NCBI GenBank assembly: GCA_963924565.1 | Contig: OZ004611.1 | Coordinates: forward strand, 29,574,001 to 29,638,000 | Direction: 5' to 3' | Source of the DNA: Ascidiella aspersa | Lineage: Eukaryota | Length of the DNA stretch: 64,000 bases | In this document: positions 13,991 through 30,591 of the stretch, piece after piece | How the letters are laid out: every line of letters starts with the position of its first letter | Position numbering within the stretch: position 1 is the stretch's first letter | Position numbers and translations under genes: made by a program | The notes under the pieces: model-generated | The model's database searches: none | Told to the model about the DNA's origin: nothing | Seen by the model: the letters and a program-made list of their open reading frames with translations, nothing else

Positions 13991-16900
13991 CAGAGACCTA
14001 ACATTGGTGGTATACGAGCCTCATCCACGAGTTAACTTTGCAACTTCAATCGGGAAGGCAAAGAGTGAGCCCCTTCAGCTGGCCAAGTTCCTCGTAAACA
14101 GATTATACTTGTTAGGCGAGTTCCCCCGGTTGTCGTGTGGTATCGTAGTCACGTTCCTCGACTTGGAGCCCGACGACTCTCTTTTGAGAGCGTGAGGCAC
14201 AGATACTGGTTTGGAGCCCGACGACTCTCTGTTGAGAGCGTGAGGCGTAGATACTGGTTGGAAGCCCGACGACTCTCTGTTGAGAGCGTGAGGCCTAGTT
14301 TTTACTGGTTGGGAGCTCGACGACTATCTGTTGATAGCGTGAGGCACAGTTTTCGTCCCCCGGTTTTCAGCGGCTCCTACGCGGCCATCCGCGCGCTCCG
14401 CCCCGGGCCTCTTCAGCAGCGGAGCTCCCGGCATTTTTTTGCCGCAGCCCTCACCCGCACTCCACCGGAGGTCCCTGCAGTTGCCGGTGTGCCATCCGGT
14501 GTTTGCTGCCCAGCTCTTGGCCTCACCCCACCGGAGGTCCCTGCAACGTTGGCCAGCTCTTCGGCCCTCTACCTCCAGTGTTCGCCGACCCCCACCGGAG
14601 GTCCCTGCAGTTGCCGGTGTGCCATCCTGTGGTTGCTGCCCAGCTCTTGGCCTCACCCCACCGGAGGTCCCTGCAACGTTGGCCAGCTCTTCGGCCCTCT
14701 ACCTCCAGTGTTCGCCGACCCCCACCGGAGGTCCCTGCAGTTGCCGGTCTGCCCTCTAGTGTCCACTGGTCGGCTCTCCACTGTACCCCACCGGAGGTCC
14801 CTACAACTTCGGCAACTTTGTGGTGCTCTACCACCAGCGTCCAGCTACCCCCACCGGAGGTCCCTGCAACCTTGGACAGCCCAGCGGTCCTCTAACACCT
14901 GCACTCCGCCTCCACCACCGGAGGTCCCTGCACCTGCCCGCTGCTCTTAAGCCTTCACAACCGGAGGCTGTCGCAGCCGCCGGTCTGCCGTTTGTGCACC
15001 AGTTCCCGACCTTCACAACCGGAGGCTCTCGCAGCCGCCGGTCTGTCGTAAGTTGCTGTACCCGCTGAAACCAGCCACCATCTCAACTGCGCCTCTCCCC
15101 ACTCCATCTGCTCCCAACCAGCCTCACCGTCTCACCATCCGCTTCCAACCCATCCGCCTCAAAACCAGTTCTACCATCTGTTCCAAACCAGCCTGCTCAT
15201 CCATCTGCCTCACCGCCTCACCATCTGCTCCAATCGCGACAACACCACCGAACGTGACTACGATCCACATCCATCTTCACCACACGACAACCCACTACCA
15301 CCTACGAAGAACTTGGCCCATCACCACCAGCAGCCCTTCACCCCTAACTCGCGGATTACACTCTGGATTAATACCATCAAAACACAAAGGATTATTCCAC
15401 CTTTCATCGCTCTCAATCATCGCCGGATCCGACACCCTTCCCCCCCTGGTTGGCCCACATCGCCGGTCTCCTTCTAAACAAGTATTTTAGCATAACCTTC
15501 TATCCTTTTTGGCCGAGAAGCACCTAACTTTAATTTAATTTATCATACTCCCCCTCGGTTATATCTTTTAATACCCTCCCCCCCTGCAACTCAAGCAATT
15601 TTAATAAGGACTCGCGCCGGCTCTAAATTGTGCTTCCTCGGTCCCTCTACCAGTTTTATATCTTACCTTTTTATTATTACATTACATACATTTTACTACT
15701 ACATATTATTACATATTATTACATACGTCTCGCTCTTTTACAATTTTACTGTGCCACGACTACTCGCAGACTTATATTTTACCTTTTTATTATCACATAT
15801 TATTACATAAATTTTACTATTACATATTATTACACATTATTACATACGTCTCGCTCTTTTACAATTTTACTGTGCCACGACTACTCGCAGACTTATATTT
15901 TACCTTTTTATTATTACATATTATTACAAACATTTTATTATTACATATTACTACATATTATTACATACATTATATTATTACATATTATTACACATTATTA
16001 CATACGTCTCGCCCTTCTACAATTTTACTGTGCCACGACTACTCGCAGACTTATATTTTACCTTTTTATTATCACATATTATTACATACATTTTACTATT
16101 ACATACTACTACACATTATTACATACGTCTCGCTCTTTTACAATTTTACTGTGCCACGACTATTCGCAGACTGTACACCGGTCCCAACGTCATGAACGTT
16201 CAACCACCGCGTCGCAGGCTTCGCCCAGCAGTTCGTTCACGCGCGGATCAGGGGACGGCATCATCCAAACCAACCAAAGATGCCCCATCGCAGGAGGAAG
16301 CCCCACCCTTGTCGGTAACGTTTAGGGGGCCCGGGGATTCCGTGTTTCGGTGCGGGGTTAGTGGCTGTTCTATGGTCTCGGCAGCGCTCCAATCAGTCAA
16401 GCGCCATTTGGCATCTGTACATGGCTTGGCTGTTGGAGTGCTGGACGCGGCCTGTGGGAAGTGTTCCGCTTCCTTCAGGTCGCGTGGCTCCCTCATTAAC
16501 GTGAGGGACCATTACCGTGCCTGTGGAGCAGTCGCCCCCGCCGCTGCACCGCGGACTCCTCGGGCCGTTTGCTGCCCAGTCTGCGATAGTCGCTGGCCGT
16601 CTCTCGTAGCTGCCAAGTCCCACCATTACCAAAAGCACCCGGGCGGGCCGTCACGCAATAACAACAGCTTTGTGGTGGCCCCCGGTCTGTTATCACCTCG
16701 GCGTAGCATTAAACAACGCCCCTTTACTCTGAACGTGCGCTACGTCGACGCGGCTACCACCTATAAATGCCCCGTGCCGGCTTGCCCGAAAGGTAATGAC
16801 GGATACGCTAGAGTCCGAACATTAAAAACCCACCTCAGTACTTGTCACAAAATTAATAACGTCTTACTTAGGGTAGTATGTGGCAAGTGCGAGTGCGTCG

Positions 16901-22258: not shown

Positions 22259-22497
22259 ATTCCCACACTGTGGGAATTCCTCTTCATCCAATTGAAAATT
22301 TGCTTCTTGTTTTGAAAAAAAGAAGCAAAACATAAATCGATTTTTCGAGCGAAAATTGAAAAGAAAAATGGTGACCGATCGGCCAAAAATGACAAATTTT
22401 GTTCCTAAAAGTTGATGCGGGGGGCTTATGGGGTAGCTATCCACAAAGAGTACGGGCGAGTAGTCGAGTAGGGCCTCGGGAAAAATCGTCACAACTC

Positions 22498-22525
22498 ATA
22501 CTTACCTGACGGGGGTCTTTAACCG
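22498..22525 (+). pseudogene. U1: 5' 28 nt of a U1 gene broken by a Tx1/L1-like element; end of the snRNA array
   Basis: ATACTTACCTGACGGGGGTCTTTAACCG then unrelated sequence; upstream spacer intact; 3' part of U1 not found in window. Confidence 0.9.
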
Positions 22526-23047
22526 CGTCACTCCAGGTGGTATATTGAGCCCGCTGCTCAACAGGTGCGAAATTAGTGCGTTACTCAGCTTATATCTTTT
22601 TTGAGTCTATCTCAGCCTTACAGTTTTGTTTAGTTTTGTCTAGTTTTGTTGTCTGGTCAGGCAAGCCTAGAATCTTTTTTCTTTTCTTAAAACAGCAACT
22701 AACCCTGGGCTGTTTTCCTTTGCGCCTTTATTAATTTTGTTTTTTTGGGGACAGTATCTAGCCCTTGGCTGCCACCTAGTGTTTTTTCTGCTCTTTTACT
22801 GGTGGCCGTATCTAACCCTGGGCGGCCACCACTTGCTCTTTTAAAAGACAGCATGTAACCCTACGCTGTCTACCTTAAAGCAATTATAACACGTTTTCTG
22901 TGACGTAACTAATTGCCAATCAAGCAATCAGCGCTTTTCGCTGATTGATTGATTATTTAATTGCCACTTTACCTTAATTTATTGTATTTTAACGTCTATT
23001 TGACGTTAAAATCACTACTACACCAACAAACCACAAATAATAAAAAT

Positions 23048-24261
23048 ATGTCGAGTGACGCCAAATCCCTCAACATTAAAATCGTCTGTGACGAAGCACA
23101 TGACATACAAGACTTTTTGCACCTCTTTGAGGAAGACGGTGCATTTGCCGAATACACAAACAATATTATTGGAGGACGAACTTTAAACCGAACAACAAAA
23201 TTATATATTATTACCTTTAAACCGGAATCGCTAGAAGAACAATACAATCATATGGCACTCCACAACTTAACAAAAGATGGCTTTCACACCACAACAAAAA
23301 CTGGCAAAAAATTTCTAATCACTTCTCGCATCCCTCCGAGACGAACAAAGAAAGTGACTTTATACCCTGCACCCTTTCACCTTGTTGAAAGCGACCTCAA
23401 AGAAATAGTAGAATACTTGGGATGGGGGACACTCGAAAACTGCTAATTTTGTTGCCATAAAAACCTCCCCTCTTTTCGGAACGGTTTTGTTAATCTGTAT
23501 ATCTCAGATATGATTCTCGAAAACATCGAACAGGAGATAGTTTTTGACCAATACACTATCCAGGTTCTTCGTCCCGGAGAGCCTATGGGCCCATATTGTG
23601 AAAAATGCCACACTCGGGGTCACTTGACCAGCGCATGCCCTGTTGCCGAAAAGCACAGATGCAGGCATTGTCAATCGACCGAGCATAAATCAAAACGATG
23701 TCCAAAACTTTACCATCATCGTCCCAACAATATGACCAAAATTACCCCCCTTTAAACAACGACAAACCATCGCAAGAAATCTCACAACAACAACAGCAAC
23801 AAGGTAACATAAACTCGCTCCTTGAGGTGATCGAGCACTTTGAAACCTCCGGTTCCCCAGTAGACCCCCCACCGCCACCCGATGCACAGAAAACCTCATC
23901 AACAACATCTCAACAAGACTCACCTAACATCCTAGATTTGCCAGTTCCCCTAATATTCTCCCCTGCGAGAGACAATTTACCATCATCGACAAGTGCCATT
24001 TCGGAACAACATTTTAATTTACTTGAAGAATTTGAAAATCATCCAGCAATAACTTTACATACCGGTACACCAAAGCGCCCACGAGCTGAGTCGCTCAGCC
24101 CAAACCGCCCTGCTAAATCCTCGTCACTCGATAGAGAGGGACGAAGTTCTAAGAGCTACGACCCCTCCACCCGATTCCAGCCTAATTCAGCGTAAAGAGA
24201 CTCCTGGGACGAGGCGAAGGCCCCTTTCCAAACTTAAAGGAAAATCTAAAAAAACCTAAAT
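23048..24261 (+). pseudogene. Tx1-like ORF1 (gag-like, two zinc knuckles) with a stop and frameshifts
   Basis: CEKCHTRGHLTSAC and CRHCQSTEHKSKRC; in-frame TAA at 23444; Ser/Pro-rich tail; end approximate. Confidence 0.8.
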
Positions 24262-24310
24262 AATCCAATCCTCTTTTCTTTTTTGTATTTGTTCTTCTCT
24301 CTGATCCGAT

Positions 24311-24929
24311 ATGATTTTTTCTCTACATAGTTTAAACATTAATGGGATAAAAAATAAATTTTTAAATCTAGAAAACTTTATTTCGAAAACAAAACCACAT
24401 ATATTAGCAGTACAAGAAACTCATAATATAAATAATCAAAAATTACACACGTTACAAACCAATATAAATTACAAATCCTACCAAACCGCCCCTGATAATA
24501 CATATACTAGTGGCACATACGAACGTTCAGGAATAATATTACTATATAAATCGGACTTGGAAAATGATTGGAACATTACACATCACATAATAACAATTAA
24601 ACGTATACAAGCCATTATCCTGACAAACAAAAACGATACGAATAATATAATATAATAATTAATATATATTTAACATCGGGCAATACATACTAGAACACAA
24701 CAAATCCCACTGCATATCAACCTAAACTAAAACACGAACATATTGATGCTTACAGATATTTTGAGCCTACGAAAAAAATTTTCACATATATTAGACGTAA
24801 TGCCGCTTCCAGGATTGATCGCATATATATTTCGAACACTTTAAAACCCAAATTAATATAAAATACAGTCACATCCCTATCACATTTTCAGACCATCAAC
24901 AATCCCCCTTTATAAACCTTAATTTAGAC
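24311..24929 (+). pseudogene. ORF2 N-terminal AP-endonuclease domain (disrupted)
   Basis: SLNINGIK, ILAVQETH, SRIDRIYIS (~24810), SDH (~24890). Confidence 0.88.
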
Positions 24930-27900
24930 CAGTGGTCTTCAACCTTTTTTACAAAATCGCCCCTTTGTTGAAAGTGCTGGTCCAAATCGCCCCCTCAAAC
25001 GAGGCCTCGAAATTAACGGCGGGCGTGGGCCGAAGGGTTTAGAAACGGCCACCGAAAGTAAGCTCTGCTCGGCCGCAGGTAACTTGAGAAGGATACAAGT
25101 AGCTTTGTATGCGTATTGCGAAAGCAAAACTCGTTTTGTTCTTATTACCATCGGAGATTCGGCTCGTTAACTCGTTGCGATACCTTTATAACTTTGGCAA
25201 CGTGCCATACTCGCTCCGATTAAAACCCACGTGCGTTTGCAAAACGTTTTTCACCTGGAATTAACGCGAAGCGCTGAAGCAGAAAACTTACGTCAATCAT
25301 AGACGTTTTTGTTGCTGGCCGCCGGAATCGCTTGCCGTTCGGCCATACTGGTTGCCGGGTGGAAAAGTTAAGTTCGAGGACTGCGAAACGATTGCCGTTG
25401 TACAAAAGTTCATGTCGCTAAAAATTTACATACAAAACTTCAAATATCCCAACAATATAAATAAGCAAAAGCAAGCACATTTTATTGAAATAAAACAGCT
25501 CGTGGAAGCTAATTAATGCGACCCTTGCGCCTGGTGCTTATTTGCAAGACTAGTAATAGCTGGGTGCAAGCCAGTCAGCTTAAGTCGAATTGCATTTCCT
25601 CCAGTCTTGTTGATGTCAAGTTGGTTTCGGTATTTATTTCTCATGTGCAATACTTCACTAAAACCTTGTTCAACAATGTATGTCGAAGGAAAAGCCAATA
25701 AATACAACTACTTCACTTTTGCCCATAGTTCCGGAAATCGATCATCGCACTTGATCCAGAAATCTACCCATCCATGTGCGAAAAAAATTGCTCGAGCTTT
25801 TTCGTCACTTTGCAAGTCGATAAGTAGTTCCTCCTGCATGGCAGAATCACATTCGTTAACTGAGATGTTTGCAGTAAATGGTTCTACCATCCATGGAAAA
25901 ACTTCAAGATCGAGCGTACATGTCTTTTTGAACAGCTTTCAGGTGTTCAATGTAAATGAGCAAATGATTGTCTGTGACATCAACCAATACTTTTGACAGT
26001 CGAGGAAAGTGATGGAATTATCTTCTGTTCAGGGTTTGTTGGTAAAGCTCCAGCTTGTTCATTAGGCCACGTATTATTGTTTTGCATTGAACCAACGTCG
26101 CATTTCTACCTTGGAGTTTGTTGATTGCGCTGTTAATTTTCTCAAAAAAATCTGCTAAACAACTGACATCTTGGTGGCAGGTAATTACATCTTTAGCAAG
26201 ATCAGATTCTTCACCAAGAAACTCCACTACACTTTTGTAAAGTTCACAGTACCTTGAAAGAGATTCGCCTTTCGACAACCAACGAACTTCCGTATGAAGC
26301 AGAAGACGCTCGAATTCTTCATCGTTCTCTTTGCACAGCTGTCGAAACATTCGGTTATTTTTGGCATTAGCCTTTATTTTGTTAATTGCGTTAACAGCAA
26401 CACCCAAAGATTCTTGCAGACGCGGACTAAGGCGTTTGGCAACCAAATGCTGACGGTGATCACACAATGCACAGTAAACAAATGGGGAAGTTTTTGCCGA
26501 AGTAAAGATGAAAACCCCCGATACCTGCCTACCATCGCTGGGGCACCATCAGTAGCGCATGCTACTATATTTGTAAGAGGGATAGATTTGTCTTGCAAGT
26601 AAGCTAACAAAGTTTGAAATATTGTTTGGCCTTTAGTGTATGTTTCCAAACACTTGCAAAATAAAAGCTCCTCCGTAATTTTGCCTTCAAATATATAACG
26701 GACATAAGCCATTAGTAATGCATTATTGTCTGATGTTGTGGTTTCATCCAGTTGTTAGCTGAAAGAAGCTTTTTTGTAGCACTTCACAAAGTTGTTCTTC
26801 ACTGTTTGCACCCATTTCATCAATTCTTCGCTTTACGGTAGTATCACTCAGTGGAACTGCTTGGAGTACAGGTGCAGGATCTTTCTCCATCACAGTTGAA
26901 ATAATTTCTTTAACAGCAGGTGCTACCAAACTTTCTCCAACAGTAAAGGGCAAGCCTTTTTTCGCAATTAATATAGAAATCTTGTAAGAAGCTATCAGTC
27001 CTTTGACGTTTTGGTCACCTTTTTTAGCAAAAATATTGCATATGCTACTTTGAGCATGACTCTCTTTTAAAGCTTGAAAAAACCCCGTTGGCTTGTTTGC
27101 TTTGTCAGGATGAATCCTGTTTAAGTGGTCCTTCAACCTTGACGGCTTCATAGCCTCATTACTGAGAGTTTTCTTACACAAAAGACACATGGGAAGTTGC
27201 ATATTCGATGGAAATGGTACAAAACCAAAGTTGATGTACCCCACAAGATAAGAACGGCACTTAATTTTTGCTTTTTTAGAATTAGAAGCCATAACCTTCC
27301 GCAATAAAATTACTATTTAAAATAAACCAGAAAACAAAAAAGTAACAATTTAAGAAATCGCTGTTACTTTCTTGTACTGCTATTATATATAATAAGCCTT
27401 CCGCTAACGCTATAAGCAGCAAACTTGACATCTTCTCTGCACAAATCAGTTAGTTTTTTGAAGTGCAGTACCCTGCGACAAATAAACGTCCGACTTGCAA
27501 GCTACCGATTGTCGAACGAAATTACCACGTGCTTGATCAGAGCACACTCAAAATCGCGCAGGCACACACGCATTTGCATTGCAACAATGTTTGACCACGG
27601 TTTGACCTTTTTTTTACTCGTGCACAAGTCGAACAAACCAAAAAGTAGTTTAAGGATCCAGAACGATTATAGCGTTCGTTATGCGCCCCGGTTTATGCGC
27701 AGAACGCTATATGAAGGCTAAATGTTTGTAGAGAAACGCGTCTCCTATTTCGGCGTCTTAAACAACACACACAGTTTGTATTTGAAACTTGTTGATGAAA
27801 TGAACGAAGAATCAAAGCTGGCTCAATTCAAGGAGACGGTTTCTACACAAAGGCAACGTGTCAAAACGTTTCACATGTGGTCCGAATTCAAATATTATGC

Positions 27901-28517
27901 TCACCAACTATTTGGGGGAACCGGGAGAAGTAATTAGCGTCACTAACTTATCAAACGCCTAAATAAAAACAAGCAATTTAGCAAACAAGGCCTCATTATG
28001 ACGTCACACATATAAACATAAACTTACCAAGACTTAAAGTTAAACAAATGAAGACAAGAAAGAGTGAGATGTCACTCTGACAAAGCTCACAAGAAAAGGC
28101 TGCAAAACAAGAGCAGTGTAAATACTCATAAAAGACGTTATCTTATACACGAAGCCATATTTCTAGGCGAACTGACTATTTGCGGTAGTAAATTTAGCAA
28201 AGGTTACTTTACATGTTGACATATTATTACCAAGGTTGCAAAACCACATTATACACAACGCAACTCACCAAAATCTTTCGTGTAACAAATACTTCAGTTT
28301 AAACAAAACGGCAGCAATACAACTTCCACCACGACAGTCAGGCGAAAAGGAAAACCACATGTATCAGAAAGTAAGCTCACAACGGTACAGCACCAATGTC
28401 TCATAGAAATCAGTAATTACTGGCAAATACGACGTAACAACGATCTTGACCGATAATTGCGCTCGGCCTTACCAATCGCCCCCTAAACAGTAAAATCGCC
28501 CCCGTTGAAGAACACTG
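24930..28517 (-). mobile_element. hAT DNA transposon (Buster/Charlie type)
   Basis: TIRs CAGTGGTCTTCAAC / GTTGAAGAACACTG; 8-bp TSD ATTTAGAC / ATTTAAAC; Tx1 ORF2 resumes after it. Confidence 0.92.
25513..27304 (-). pseudogene. Frameshifted Buster-type hAT transposase
   Basis: BED-like CLLC..LSNEAMKPSRLKDHL..H, ATDGAPAM, HC, LLLHTEVRWLSKG, FPSTYIVEQGFS across several ORFs. Confidence 0.9.
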
Positions 28518-28846
28518 ATTTAAACAAACAATCCCGCAGGGACGCGGAAAATGGAAACTTAATGTAACTTTATTAAAACATCCAATTTATATACAAAGAA
28601 TCAAAAATACAATAGCACAGTGGCAAGCTAACTTGAAATCACATGACGACTTGTGTCAACAATGGGAAAAATAAAAAATAAAATGGGAATCAATTCTTTT
28701 CGCCCAAAAAAAACAACACCAAAAATCGTTTTCTACAAACCAAGCTTGAAAATAAACTTAAATCAATAATGGAAAATATCGATTACGACAACTTAGAGTA
28801 CAACATTGATTACTTAGACACTATTGAAAAACTTAAAACTATTGAC

Positions 28847-30591
28847 TTTCGAGAGACGGCAAAATACGTTTTCGCTTGCCAAATCTTTCCACGGCCAACC
28901 AGCAAGTCTTGGGTAAGTCTGAGAGTTGTACCTCTTCCTGACTGACCCCAAACTTTATCGCTTCTCTGCTCTTCAGAGACCTAATATTGGTGGCATATGA
29001 GCCTCATCCACGAGTTTACTTTGCAACTTCGATCGGGAAGGCAAAGAGTTGAGCCCTTCAGCTGGCCAAGTTCCTCGTAAACAGACTATACTTGTTAGGC
29101 GAATTCCCCCGGTTGTCGTGTGGTATCGTAGTCACGTTCCTCGACTTGGAGCCCGACGATTCTCTTTTGAGAGCGTGAGGCGCAGATACTGGTTGGAAGC
29201 CCGACGACTCTCTGTTGAGAGCGTTAGGCCTAGTTTTTACTGGTTGGGAGCTCGACGACTATCTGTTGATAGCGTGAGGCGCAGTTTTCGTCCCCCGGTT
29301 TTCAGCGGCTCCTACGCGGCCATCCGCGCTCCGCCCCGGGCCTCTTCAGCAGCGGAGCTCCCGGCATTTTTTTGCCGCAGCCCTCACCCGCACTCCACCG
29401 GAGGTCCCTGCAACGTTGCCCAGCTCTTCGGTCCTCTACCTCCAGTGGTCGCCGACCCCCACCAGAGGTCCCTGCAGTTGCCGGTCTGCCCTCTAATGTC
29501 CACTGGTCGGCCCTCCACTGTACCCCACCGGAGGTCCCTACAACTTCGGCAACTTTGTGGTGCTCTACCTACCACACGACCCTATCGCCGCCGCTCTTAC
29601 TGTACTTTTTTTTACTCGCGGCGAAGGTCCACGCCGCTACATTGAACCGTTCGTTGTATTTTATAAGTTAAGCACTACGTCTCGTTCTTTTACAACTTAG
29701 GGCCCCTATAATATTTGTTCCTGCCTCGTGGCTGCCTTCTCTGTTGTTAGGGTAATTCCTGTACTTATATCTCGTTAACGTCCGAATTAAACAGTTCCTC
29801 TGCCATTTTCCATCGGCGGTGTTAAACCCTTTACTCAACTAATTCTACCATACGTCTGCTACTTTAAACCCTAACCAAATCGCCGCCGCTCTTGCTGTTC
29901 TTTTTTTTTACTTGCGGCGAAGGTTCCACGCCGCTACATTGAACCGTTCGTTGTATTTTATCCCTATTTCTTCTTAACTTAAGCACTACGTCTTCTCGTT
30001 CATTTACAACTTAGGGCCCCTATAATCTTTGTTCCTGCCTCGTGGCTGCCTTCTGTTGTTAGGTTCCTGTACTTATATCTCGTTAACGTCCGAATTTAAC
30101 AGTTCCCCTTCAATTTTCTCCATCGCCGGTGTTAAAACCTTTACTCAACTAATTCTACCATATACGTCTGCTACTTTAAACCCTAACCAAATCGCCACCG
30201 CTCTTGCTGTTCTTTTTTTTTACTTGCGGCGAAGGTTCCACGCCGCTACATTGAACCGTTCGTTGTATTTTATCCCTATTTCTTTTTAACTTAAGCATTA
30301 CGTCTCGTTCTTTTACAATTTACTGTGCCACGACTATTCGCAGACTGTACACCGGTCCCAACATCATGAACGTTCAACCACCGCGTCGCAGGCTTCGCCC
30401 AGCAGTTCGTTCACGCGCGGATCAGCAGGGGACGGCATCCTCCTCTAAACCAACCAAAGATGCCTGCCTCATCGCAGGAGGAATCCCCACCCTTGTCGGT
30501 ACGTTTAGGGGGCCCGGGGATTCTTCCGTGTTTCGGTGCGGGGTTAGTGGCTGTTCTATGGTCTCGGCAGCGTTCCAATCAGTCAAGCGCC
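28847..30591 (+). mobile_element. Displaced fragment: ~110 bp U2 upstream spacer + U2 nt 1-17 (28957-28973) + 5' UTR and first ~75 codons of a diverged Utopia-like copy
   Basis: Matches 4601-5570 and 6860-7142 with substitutions and indels; breaks off into Tx1 RT sequence. Confidence 0.88.
29585..30310 (+). repeat. ~300-bp tandem repeat (about 2.4 units) in the variant Utopia 5' UTR
   Basis: CGCCGCCGCTCTT..GGCGAAGGT anchor at ~29586, 29881, 30193. Confidence 0.8.

Follow-up and report, generated by a model that had tools for sequence, protein, structure and literature searches.

A repeated hairpin motif under selection in the 5' leader of a U1-headed retrotransposon from the ascidian Ascidiella aspersa

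In the ascidian Ascidiella aspersa, the leader of a retrotransposon that begins within a U1 small nuclear RNA (snRNA) gene carries four hairpins which, judging from the comparison of copies, are real and under selection. They represent an RNA motif that we did not find described, in an element of a known kind, with a function that we infer: their sequence pattern makes it likely that a protein docks at these repeated sites. Unless another locus is named, coordinates refer to the window, i.e. the whole stretch of 64,000 nt that was analysed (contig OZ004611.1, positions 29,574,001 to 29,638,000, forward strand).

Positions 1-22525 are the end of a tandem array whose 1193-bp unit contains U2, U1 and, on the opposite strand, U6, as established from Rfam hits and comparison of the units; only U1, U2 and U6 reach the Rfam threshold in the whole window. 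Among 91 candidates obtained with a U1 query, all 40 that were scored are perfect copies adjoining the window, i.e. there are at least 40. The last U1 gene of the array ends after nt 28, where a second retroelement begins, and segment 22109-22525 is 99.8% identical to intact array units. The linked U2/U1/U6 unit is homogenised along with the U2 element inserted in it, as 9.7-kb blocks are 99.5% identical. The U1-inserted element has a leader of 522 nt after the U1 head (550 nt with it), followed by ORF1 from 23048 and an APE domain from ~24305; its later parts are broken up and its 3' end is lost. The features of the insertion site and of the coding part are as follows.

22264..22497, + strand: U2-U1 spacer of the 1193-bp array, which should contain the external U1 promoter, given the known layout of snRNA genes
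22498..22525, + strand: U1 snRNA nt 1-28, the head of the element (100% match)
23048..23755, + strand: ORF1, broken in the window copy; two RRM folds and two CCHC knuckles (zf-CCHC E=0.0096, below the cut-off)
24305..24929, + strand: start of ORF2 (APE endonuclease), broken; Exo_endo_phos E=3.6e-7, with matches to locus L028
~24930-28525: DNA-transposon-like insertion; an X1 contig joins across it
up to ~32950: scattered RT fragments after the DNA-transposon-like insertion

A DNA search of the genome returned two matches, the window and a copy on C1 that is 72% identical (loci L002 and L028, which are one copy). This copy is full length, with an intact 262-aa ORF1, one stop in ORF2 and a poly(A) end. 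It lies away from all U1 genes and starts with U1 nt 2, directly after a target-site duplication; two blocks are repeated on both sides of it, with an indel between the blocks. The U1-derived 5' end has thus been carried to a new site, as in other snRNA-headed retroelements. In two of the four leaders described here, the 5' junction is found at U1 nt 27-28 behind array-type upstream DNA. No U1 remainder follows any 3' end examined, the only full-length copy (L028) being off target.

By its sequence features this is an L1-clade non-LTR retrotransposon, with 'Tx1-like' as a lead for its placement. ORF2 combines an APE endonuclease (Exo_endo_phos in the window) with a reverse transcriptase (the RT ORF of L028), ORF1 has its RRMs ahead of the CCHC knuckles, as in the type I ORF1 of PMC4120745, and L028 ends in poly(A) within a target-site duplication. 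The RT ORF of L028 has 1565 protein matches, the top ones with RVT_1 and Exo_endo_phos at 37% identity, and its best PDB match is human L1 ORF2p (E=2.5e-47; 5.6e-21 for R2). Among the 120 RT matches listed, one is named 'Transposon TX1 putative 149 kDa' (29%).

The initial annotation had placed four hairpins with U-rich linkers on the + strand of the leader, and all four were confirmed at those positions.

22689..22716, + strand: hairpin 1 (core 22695-22710), with an AA bulge and an ACCC loop
22750-22773, extending to 22747-22776, + strand: hairpin 2 (core 22754-22769), with an AU bulge, a GCCC loop and one A.C mismatch
22800..22831, + strand: hairpin 3 (core 22808-22823), with an AU bulge and an ACCC loop; pairing probability ~1.0 in global and local folds
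22846..22871, + strand: hairpin 4 (core 22851-22866), with an inner G-C pair in place of C-G

In the RNAalifold consensus of eight hairpins, the outer stem leads via a 2-nt bulge into an inner stem of 3 bp, which is capped by a 4-nt loop. A conserved 12-nt loop sequence had been proposed; a span of that length is present, but the better reading divides it into a bulge of 2 nt, a weak stem of 3 bp and an RNCC tetraloop, and CUAACCCU itself is not conserved, occurring in just two of the four window hairpins and three of nine cores. The motif is composed of a stable stem of free sequence, an A-A or A-U bulge, the weak inner stem and the RNCC loop, in which CC alone is fixed; loop position 2 is C, A or U, and GUCC and GACC occur. 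The hairpins fall into two stem classes, 2/3 and 1/4. The predicted inner stem adds ~0.5-0.8 kcal/mol in seven of nine hairpins and is outside the best local fold in the other two, and its pairing probability is 0.2-0.7 where the hairpin forms. It is supported by one compensated change from C-G to G-C (in hairpin 4 of both subfamilies, which counts as one event) and one from U-G to U-A, with one U.U exception. As the inner stem is weak, the open 12-nt loop and the bulged tetraloop may both be populated.

The 221-nt hairpin region folds with a z score of -2.38, and 3 of 200 shuffles are as good. Without restriction, hairpins 1 and 2 of the window and 2 and 3 of L028 lose to longer-range pairings; with a 45-nt span limit, eight of the nine hairpins form at probabilities of at least 0.98. 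Hairpin 2 of the window is decayed, with a local-fold pairing probability of 0.07 versus 0.99-1.0 for hairpins 1, 3 and 4, and contigs of X1 and X2 have a T at 22749 that restores one of its outer pairs. The shared 16-nt core GYAWSTARNCCTDSGC occurs four times in the window, against 0.24 expected, a count reached by none of 100 shuffles and, within the leader, by none of 2000 leader shuffles. As the core pattern was built from the window hairpins and their L002 orthologues, the held-out loci L114 and L179 and the divergence contrast below are better tests. An Rfam search of 22480-23100 gave nine weak matches at E<=10, all far under the gathering threshold, and detected no family, ribozymes included. 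Thus, the view of the initial annotation that this is an unannotated structured RNA motif stands: it is a covarying, sense-strand motif without an Rfam match.

The stems were said to differ in sequence and yet keep pairing, which is borne out by compensatory changes and G-U wobbles across copies. On the sense strand, the 90 pairs of the nine hairpins comprise 74 Watson-Crick pairs, 13 G-U, 1 A-C and 2 others, and the excess of G-U over A-C points to constraint at the RNA level. The covariation score is 0.573 versus 0.250 for shuffled alignments and is reached by none of 500 shuffles, with 93.9% of cells paired in the nine hairpins and at most 47.5% in slid alignment controls. Two-sided changes affect 6 of 11 pairs, a count that is not above shuffles (59/500), the rows being related by duplication and descent. 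The window and L028 differ at 9 of 64 core positions and 7 of 40 stem positions, as opposed to 40 of 106 linker positions (plus 10 gaps) and 32 of 57 fourfold sites of ORF1, and the conservation of the cores relative to the silent rate has a binomial P of ~4e-12. Leader/ORF recombination or conversion among hairpins could bias this contrast, but the nearby linkers diverge freely.

Three diverged U1-headed leaders besides that of the window keep the motif, one of them full length with four hairpins and two of them truncated relics with one each. Thus, the stems are not lacking from intact family members: full-length L028 has kept all four, and in contigs from other samples they are combined with an ORF1 free of the stop seen in the window. 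The exact-core pattern has 32 matches in the genome versus 8 in a reversed control. Thirty were fetched, nine of which are in U1-headed leaders; eight of these nine extend by 5-8 pairs. Stem extension never exceeds two further pairs in the other 21, and the best covariance-model score among them is 18.4 bits. A looser core pattern gave 42 matches versus 18 in the control. The one-mismatch matches were examined for 16 of 33, and as the genome was searched by IUPAC patterns, variants outside these patterns may be missed. The ninth exact-core match led to the third subfamily (L114/L128, which are one subfamily), which has array-type upstream DNA, a junction at U1 nt 27 and one hairpin at +148, followed by a deletion; this hairpin scores 37.2 bits with a covariance model not trained on it. 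The fourth leader, L179, came from the looser pattern and is older; its U1 head is decayed, and its single hairpin, at +209, scores 27.7 bits, also held out. The leader and ORF1 end of L114/L128 are very unlike those of L028, and their ORF2 sequences are ~90% identical, a pattern that suggests that subfamilies have swapped their 5' modules.

All four window-type hairpins are also covered by contigs from two other samples, in which the leader shows three differences from that of the window. The ORF1 stop of the window is absent from X1 and X3 contigs and from six of six X8 reads, and short X4 contigs hint at a further leader variant. An RNA run in which ~6 of every 100 reads were sampled yielded eight reads, none on the hairpins, two on ORF2 and four from one copy of the U1-headed SINE described below, which says nothing firm on expression, splicing or trans-splicing. 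Runs X5 and X6 gave no matching reads. A metagenome scan gave 10 loci at 24-29% identity, none of them with the motif.

Other parts of the leader have recurrent features.

22526..22543, + strand: 5'-splice-site-like stretch, predicted to fold back onto the U1 5' arm (local folding, all four leaders)
22545..22561, + strand: small covarying hairpin TTGAGC/GCTCAA, found in all four U1-headed leaders (variants TAGAGC/GCTCTA and TTGGGC/GCCCAA)
22608..22650, + strand: U-rich tract with three AGTTTTG units, the first part of which is similar to the helix-H strand of U1 and its Sm site, which lie equally far from +1
22880..22954, + strand: GTGACGT(C/A)A..ATTG module and long hairpin; the module is also found in relatives headed by a spliced leader (SL)
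22987..23011, + strand: hairpin of 10 bp, followed by an A/C-rich stretch and then by the ORF1 start; in L002 its stem is identical and its loop different

Per-copy shuffle tests of the fold-back onto the U1 arm are weak (25, 129 and 120 of 1000), and SL-headed leaders are likewise predicted to fold back over the SL donor. The GTGACGT(C/A)A..ATTG module is present in 10 of 15 leaders, several of them near-identical, and in none of 3000 shuffles. The leader also holds what we take to be CRE-like and CTCF-like motifs, some of them common to SL-headed families. The U-rich tract has 18 identities in 26 positions with U1, reached on the diagonal by none of 300 shuffles in a post hoc comparison and by 138 of 1000 by local alignment; in two other leaders the likeness to U1 helix H and the Sm site is off the diagonal. 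U-rich, Sm-site-like tracts lie near the Sm position of U1 itself in the window (22608-22650) and in the leaders of L114 (+126) and L179 (+147 and +157), and two of the four leaders have a canonical AU4-7G tract. Homology of the leader to U1 beyond the head was rejected, being not significant by local or global alignment in three leaders, with one post hoc block in the window, and a canonical Sm site before each hairpin is not conserved. Pairing of the loops with the G run of the U1 head was dropped by eye, as any 4-nt C-rich loop would fit.

Three other groups of retroelements serve as natural controls. A pattern for the U1 head gave 35 matches and none in the control. Two are the LINE copies and 33 are other U1-headed insertions, of which 28 were fetched. 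The latter represent a SINE of ~400 nt with a poly(A) end, headed by U1 nt 1-35 with a variant (L068-L097, e.g. L091 from 1497) and dispersed over C1-C9. Target-site duplications of at least 9 nt flank 9 of the 28 loci, and none of the 28 has U1 upstream DNA; by its sequence, it is a SINEU-like family outside crocodilians. The covariance model has no match in the 28 loci. X8 DNA reads number ~90 for this SINE versus ~1030 for U1. A link between the SINE and the tail of the U1 LINE was discarded, as one 13-mer (E=0.15) is too weak to argue for shared machinery.

Genome searches with ORF1 and APE gave 50 and 32 matches, respectively, mostly in clusters on C3, C7 and C36. The stretches read contain intact or decayed relatives joined just past an SL exon and its donor, in arrays of a gene that starts with the Ciona-type spliced leader. 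This radiation of SL-headed APE-type LINEs (L029-L037 and L170-L178; C3 5.2-5.43 Mb, C7 14.2-15.1 Mb and C36) includes many intact ORFs, some C36 copies look ORF1-only, and two types of SL genes, with 584-bp and 429-bp units, host the LINEs. Their leaders have structures of their own and are motif-free: the covariance model found nothing above 12.3 bits in the SL-headed loci and other stretches, and no match in 10 further loci. Their ORF1 proteins are homologous to those of the U1-headed elements (27-41% identity). In an ORF1 tree with midpoint root, the two U1-headed proteins group together (100/100) within a nine-row clade that includes SL-associated families (97/97), from which we infer a switch of head from SL to U1 in this LINE lineage. 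A LINE 3'-tail motif, GCCGAAGAGGC ... ATGATGAGGCC ... ATGGATTC, occurs in L028 (minus strand, ~6200-6330), L010 (~1065-1170) and the flank of L068, and is a candidate recognition signal for ORF2p. A tRNA-like sequence is found within the 3' UTRs of SL-headed LINEs (L031, L037; L169 2357-2429), one instance being at the Rfam tRNA threshold.

Several U2 genes carry a single-ORF RT element (1571 aa, RVT_1), read as Utopia-like from its site and layout. It has hairpin arrays of its own at window positions 4905-5082, 14168-14345 and 29149-29280, with four, four and three units and one compensated change, in a fourth unit. The hairpins have a GCC stem, a 2x2 internal loop, a bulged A and a UNUU loop, and are unrelated to those of the U1 element. 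The initial annotation had pointed out that both snRNA-inserted elements have four hairpins ~190-370 nt past the snRNA start, and this agrees with the positions that we determined (192-374 in the U1 element, +195 to +372 in the U2 element). A 25-nt motif, identical at 24 of 25 positions, is shared by the leader of the U2 element (5154-5178) and SL-headed leaders (L030, L031, L032), the elements being unrelated, and is absent from the U1-headed leaders.

Nearly the same core, picked up among the one-mismatch matches, also occurs in a single-locus host array on C1 (3261.9-3266.2 kb; L192 3894-8173, minus strand) of ~95-97 units of 43-46 bp. A pattern built for it gave 94 matches and none in the control, every match being at the same locus. 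In each unit, the core has an AG bulge and is flanked by arms rich in G and in C, with U/G-rich linkers, and the core is more uniform than its flanks. On its strand, the array is preceded by splice-site-like boundaries, and long ORFs are absent outside the repeat. The units are not predicted to adopt the fold of the element hairpins (pairing of at most 0.45 for the outer and 0.05 for the inner core pair), 168 of 500 shuffles equal or exceed the stability of a unit, and the loop C that is fixed in the element is altered in 10 of 95 units. The array is a candidate for an lncRNA built from repeats, or else a minisatellite with a chance resemblance; the latter is a fair explanation, given 33 non-family matches versus 18 in the control.

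Bulge and loop letters that stay constant while the stems can be exchanged, in several copies separated by unstructured linkers, are the usual anatomy of protein-binding arrays. We tentatively propose that the hairpins offer multivalent binding to the ORF1 protein (ORF1p) of the element itself, with its RRMs and zinc knuckles, which would select full-length RNA for packaging. The element starts with U1 nt 1-28, two copies lie behind array-type U1 upstream DNA, and full-length L028 is dispersed; the U1 promoter of an array-inserted copy would start the template RNA at U1 +1. In the copies compared, the bulge and loop letters are fixed and stem changes are compensated on the sense strand, which may be the signature of a protein-binding hairpin that was multiplied by duplication, with a probable gain in avidity. 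The putative ligand, ORF1p, is predicted to have two RRMs and two CCHC knuckles: the model of L028 ORF1p has the RRMs first and then the knuckles (pLDDT 80), and its best PDB matches are the tandem RRMs of U2AF65, HuR and Sxl. According to the available text of the respective sources, the knuckles of SART1 ORF1 package their own mRNA specifically (PMC4120745), and zebrafish L2 ORF2p reads its own hairpin via the loop sequence, the stem being exchangeable (PMC4176376). A different four-hairpin motif in the U2-inserted element is expected if each array is read by its own protein. Nevertheless, the motif is tied to the U1 head and absent from SL-headed relatives with a homologous ORF1p, which counts against ORF1p as the ligand, as does the ~95-copy C1 array, which fits a host ligand if it is not due to chance. 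Human L1 ORF1p binds RNA with little sequence preference. The shared GTGACGT(C/A)A..ATTG module could be the real self-recognition signal, leaving the hairpins for a host-specific need.

Recruitment of a host RNA-binding protein by the hairpins and U/C-rich linkers, to confer the fate of an mRNA (stability, export or translation through a long structured leader) on a U1-capped, intronless RNA, is somewhat unlikely. The tie to the U1 head is equally compatible with a host factor, as lineage and head cannot be told apart in this genome: the motif is found only in the U1-headed lineage, whose ORF1 sits among SL-associated families, SL-headed relatives would obtain their mRNA fate from the spliced leader, and the non-coding U1-headed SINE is devoid of the motif. 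The long leader (550 nt) is strongly folded, with a hairpin and an A/C-rich stretch before the AUG, and the C1 array has a nearly identical core in host DNA behind splice-site-like boundaries. C-rich loops with pyrimidine linkers also recall PCBP/PTB-bound viral leaders, but a loop in which CC alone is fixed, GUCC and GACC being found, is weak for a poly(C) binder. Furthermore, none of the 21 other exact-core matches has a stem longer by more than two pairs, the C1 units are not predicted to take the element-hairpin fold, and length alone leads to mRNA export of U1-promoter transcripts in Xenopus oocytes, where those with inserts of 200-360 nt were made and exported as mRNA (available text of PMC2241894). 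A broader scenario, which we consider quite improbable, makes the motif a host RNA-protein code: the SL-derived U1 LINE would pose as an snRNA, with its masked U1 5' end, Sm-like U tract at ~+125 and hairpins, and be routed via host RNPs to snRNA arrays, and the C1 array would be a host lncRNA with the same code, as a scaffold or a decoy against ORF1p.

The initial annotation hinted at a convergent escape from snRNA termination. TAR works as a bulged hairpin near the 5' end, and the hairpins might similarly form a nascent-RNA anti-terminator that lets the polymerase run 6 kb from the U1 promoter, the U2 element having evolved its own array. We regard this as unlikely. Both elements have four hairpins at ~+190 to +375, and dispersed L028 shows that full-length RNA from U1 +1 was made. 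Nevertheless, the two arrays have no common sequence or architecture, and hairpin number varies, with three in one U2-element copy and one in each of two truncated leaders. Insertion at U1 nt 27-28 would remove the normal 3' box from the region, the U1-headed SINE attains ~400 nt despite lacking the motif, and those SL-headed LINEs in SL arrays whose ORFs are intact have neither the motif nor a fourfold repeat at that distance. The oocyte transcripts with long inserts behind a U1 promoter (PMC2241894) also speak against it. That the repeats are DNA-level sites (internal promoter, insulator) or neutral palindrome duplications is very unlikely; the CRE-like and CTCF-like motifs, some of them common to SL-headed families, and the origin of the hairpins by duplication would fit, but 13 G-U versus 1 A-C on the sense strand, compensated stem changes and cores far more conserved than silent sites argue against it. 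Least probable is that the loops are branch points for SF1/U2 snRNP or bait for telomeric UUAGGG RNA. The branch-point-like CUAAC and the match to the C-strand of TTAGGG in CUAACCCU, both noted in the initial annotation, are each confined to three of nine cores, although they also occur in L179, and they do not hold as features of the motif. Sequences like 5' splice sites are kept near the head, and a CAG follows a pyrimidine tract in hairpins 1 and 4. However, where core position 5, the C of CUAAC, becomes G, its pairing partner changes as well; position 8, at which the branch A would lie, is G in five of nine cores, and position 9 is free. Spacing to the next AG is not kept: L028 hairpin 1 has no AG within 60 nt, and for window hairpin 1 it lies 52 nt away. 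We therefore rejected both a spliceosomal branch point or SF1 site, for want of a fixed branch A in YUNAY and of a kept AG distance, and a telomeric repeat or telomerase template, as CUAACCCU is not conserved.

Comparable elements are known elsewhere. In crocodilians, U1- and U2-headed Tx1-Mar families are found with SINEU, their transcription route being left open in the available text (Kojima 2015, PMC4494074). As in that system, an APE-type retrotransposon and a short non-autonomous element are both headed by a U1 fragment in A. aspersa. Unlike Tx1-Mar (Mariner element), two copies sit in U1 genes behind the array upstream region, in an ascidian host, and the leader has a conserved hairpin array, which the same text does not describe for Tx1-Mar. 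Keno (APE/Tx1) and Utopia (RLE) target U2 genes, and the DNA transposon Dada-U1 is the sole U1 targeter listed in the available part of a 2015 source (PMC4640811). The insertion into an snRNA array is like that of Keno and Utopia, and the same array contains the U2-inserted single-ORF RT element with its own four-hairpin leader; unlike Keno and Utopia, the U1 element has a U1 head, and no copy was seen with the U1 remainder at its 3' end. From what the sources present, it shares with the ZfL2 3' stem-loop (PMC4176376) a loop-specific, stem-tolerant hairpin in retrotransposon RNA, and with SART1 (PMC4120745) possible self-recognition, there by ORF1-dependent packaging, the ligand of the U1 element being putative. 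The R2 5' RNA element is described as pseudoknotted (PMC2346776, PMC11194090) and ZfL2 has a single 3' hairpin, in contrast with the 5' array of four hairpins without an Rfam match of the U1 element. In the freely accessible literature that was searched, we found no description of the motif or of a U1-headed ascidian LINE or SINE. HIV Psi is a four-hairpin array read by CCHC knuckles, and TAR and Psi are bulged hairpins in a 5' leader. The U1 element has no sequence likeness to them, its loops are RNCC whereas those of Psi are G-rich, and it is not an LTR element.

The available text of PMC4494074 leaves open the transcription and handling of snRNA-headed retroelements, a question for which A. 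aspersa offers a natural control set: a U1 LINE with hairpins, a U1 SINE without them, SL-headed sister LINEs without them, and a U2 element with a different array at the same distance. With some positions of the 16-nt motif fixed and others free, binding and reporter assays can address the question directly. Should the ligand turn out to be a host protein, the C1 array may represent a new lncRNA built from repeats. With ORF1p as the ligand, the element would provide a compact, sequence-specific ORF1p-RNA pair in the L1 clade, which would be useful for studies of cis preference and for RNA-templated insertion tools.
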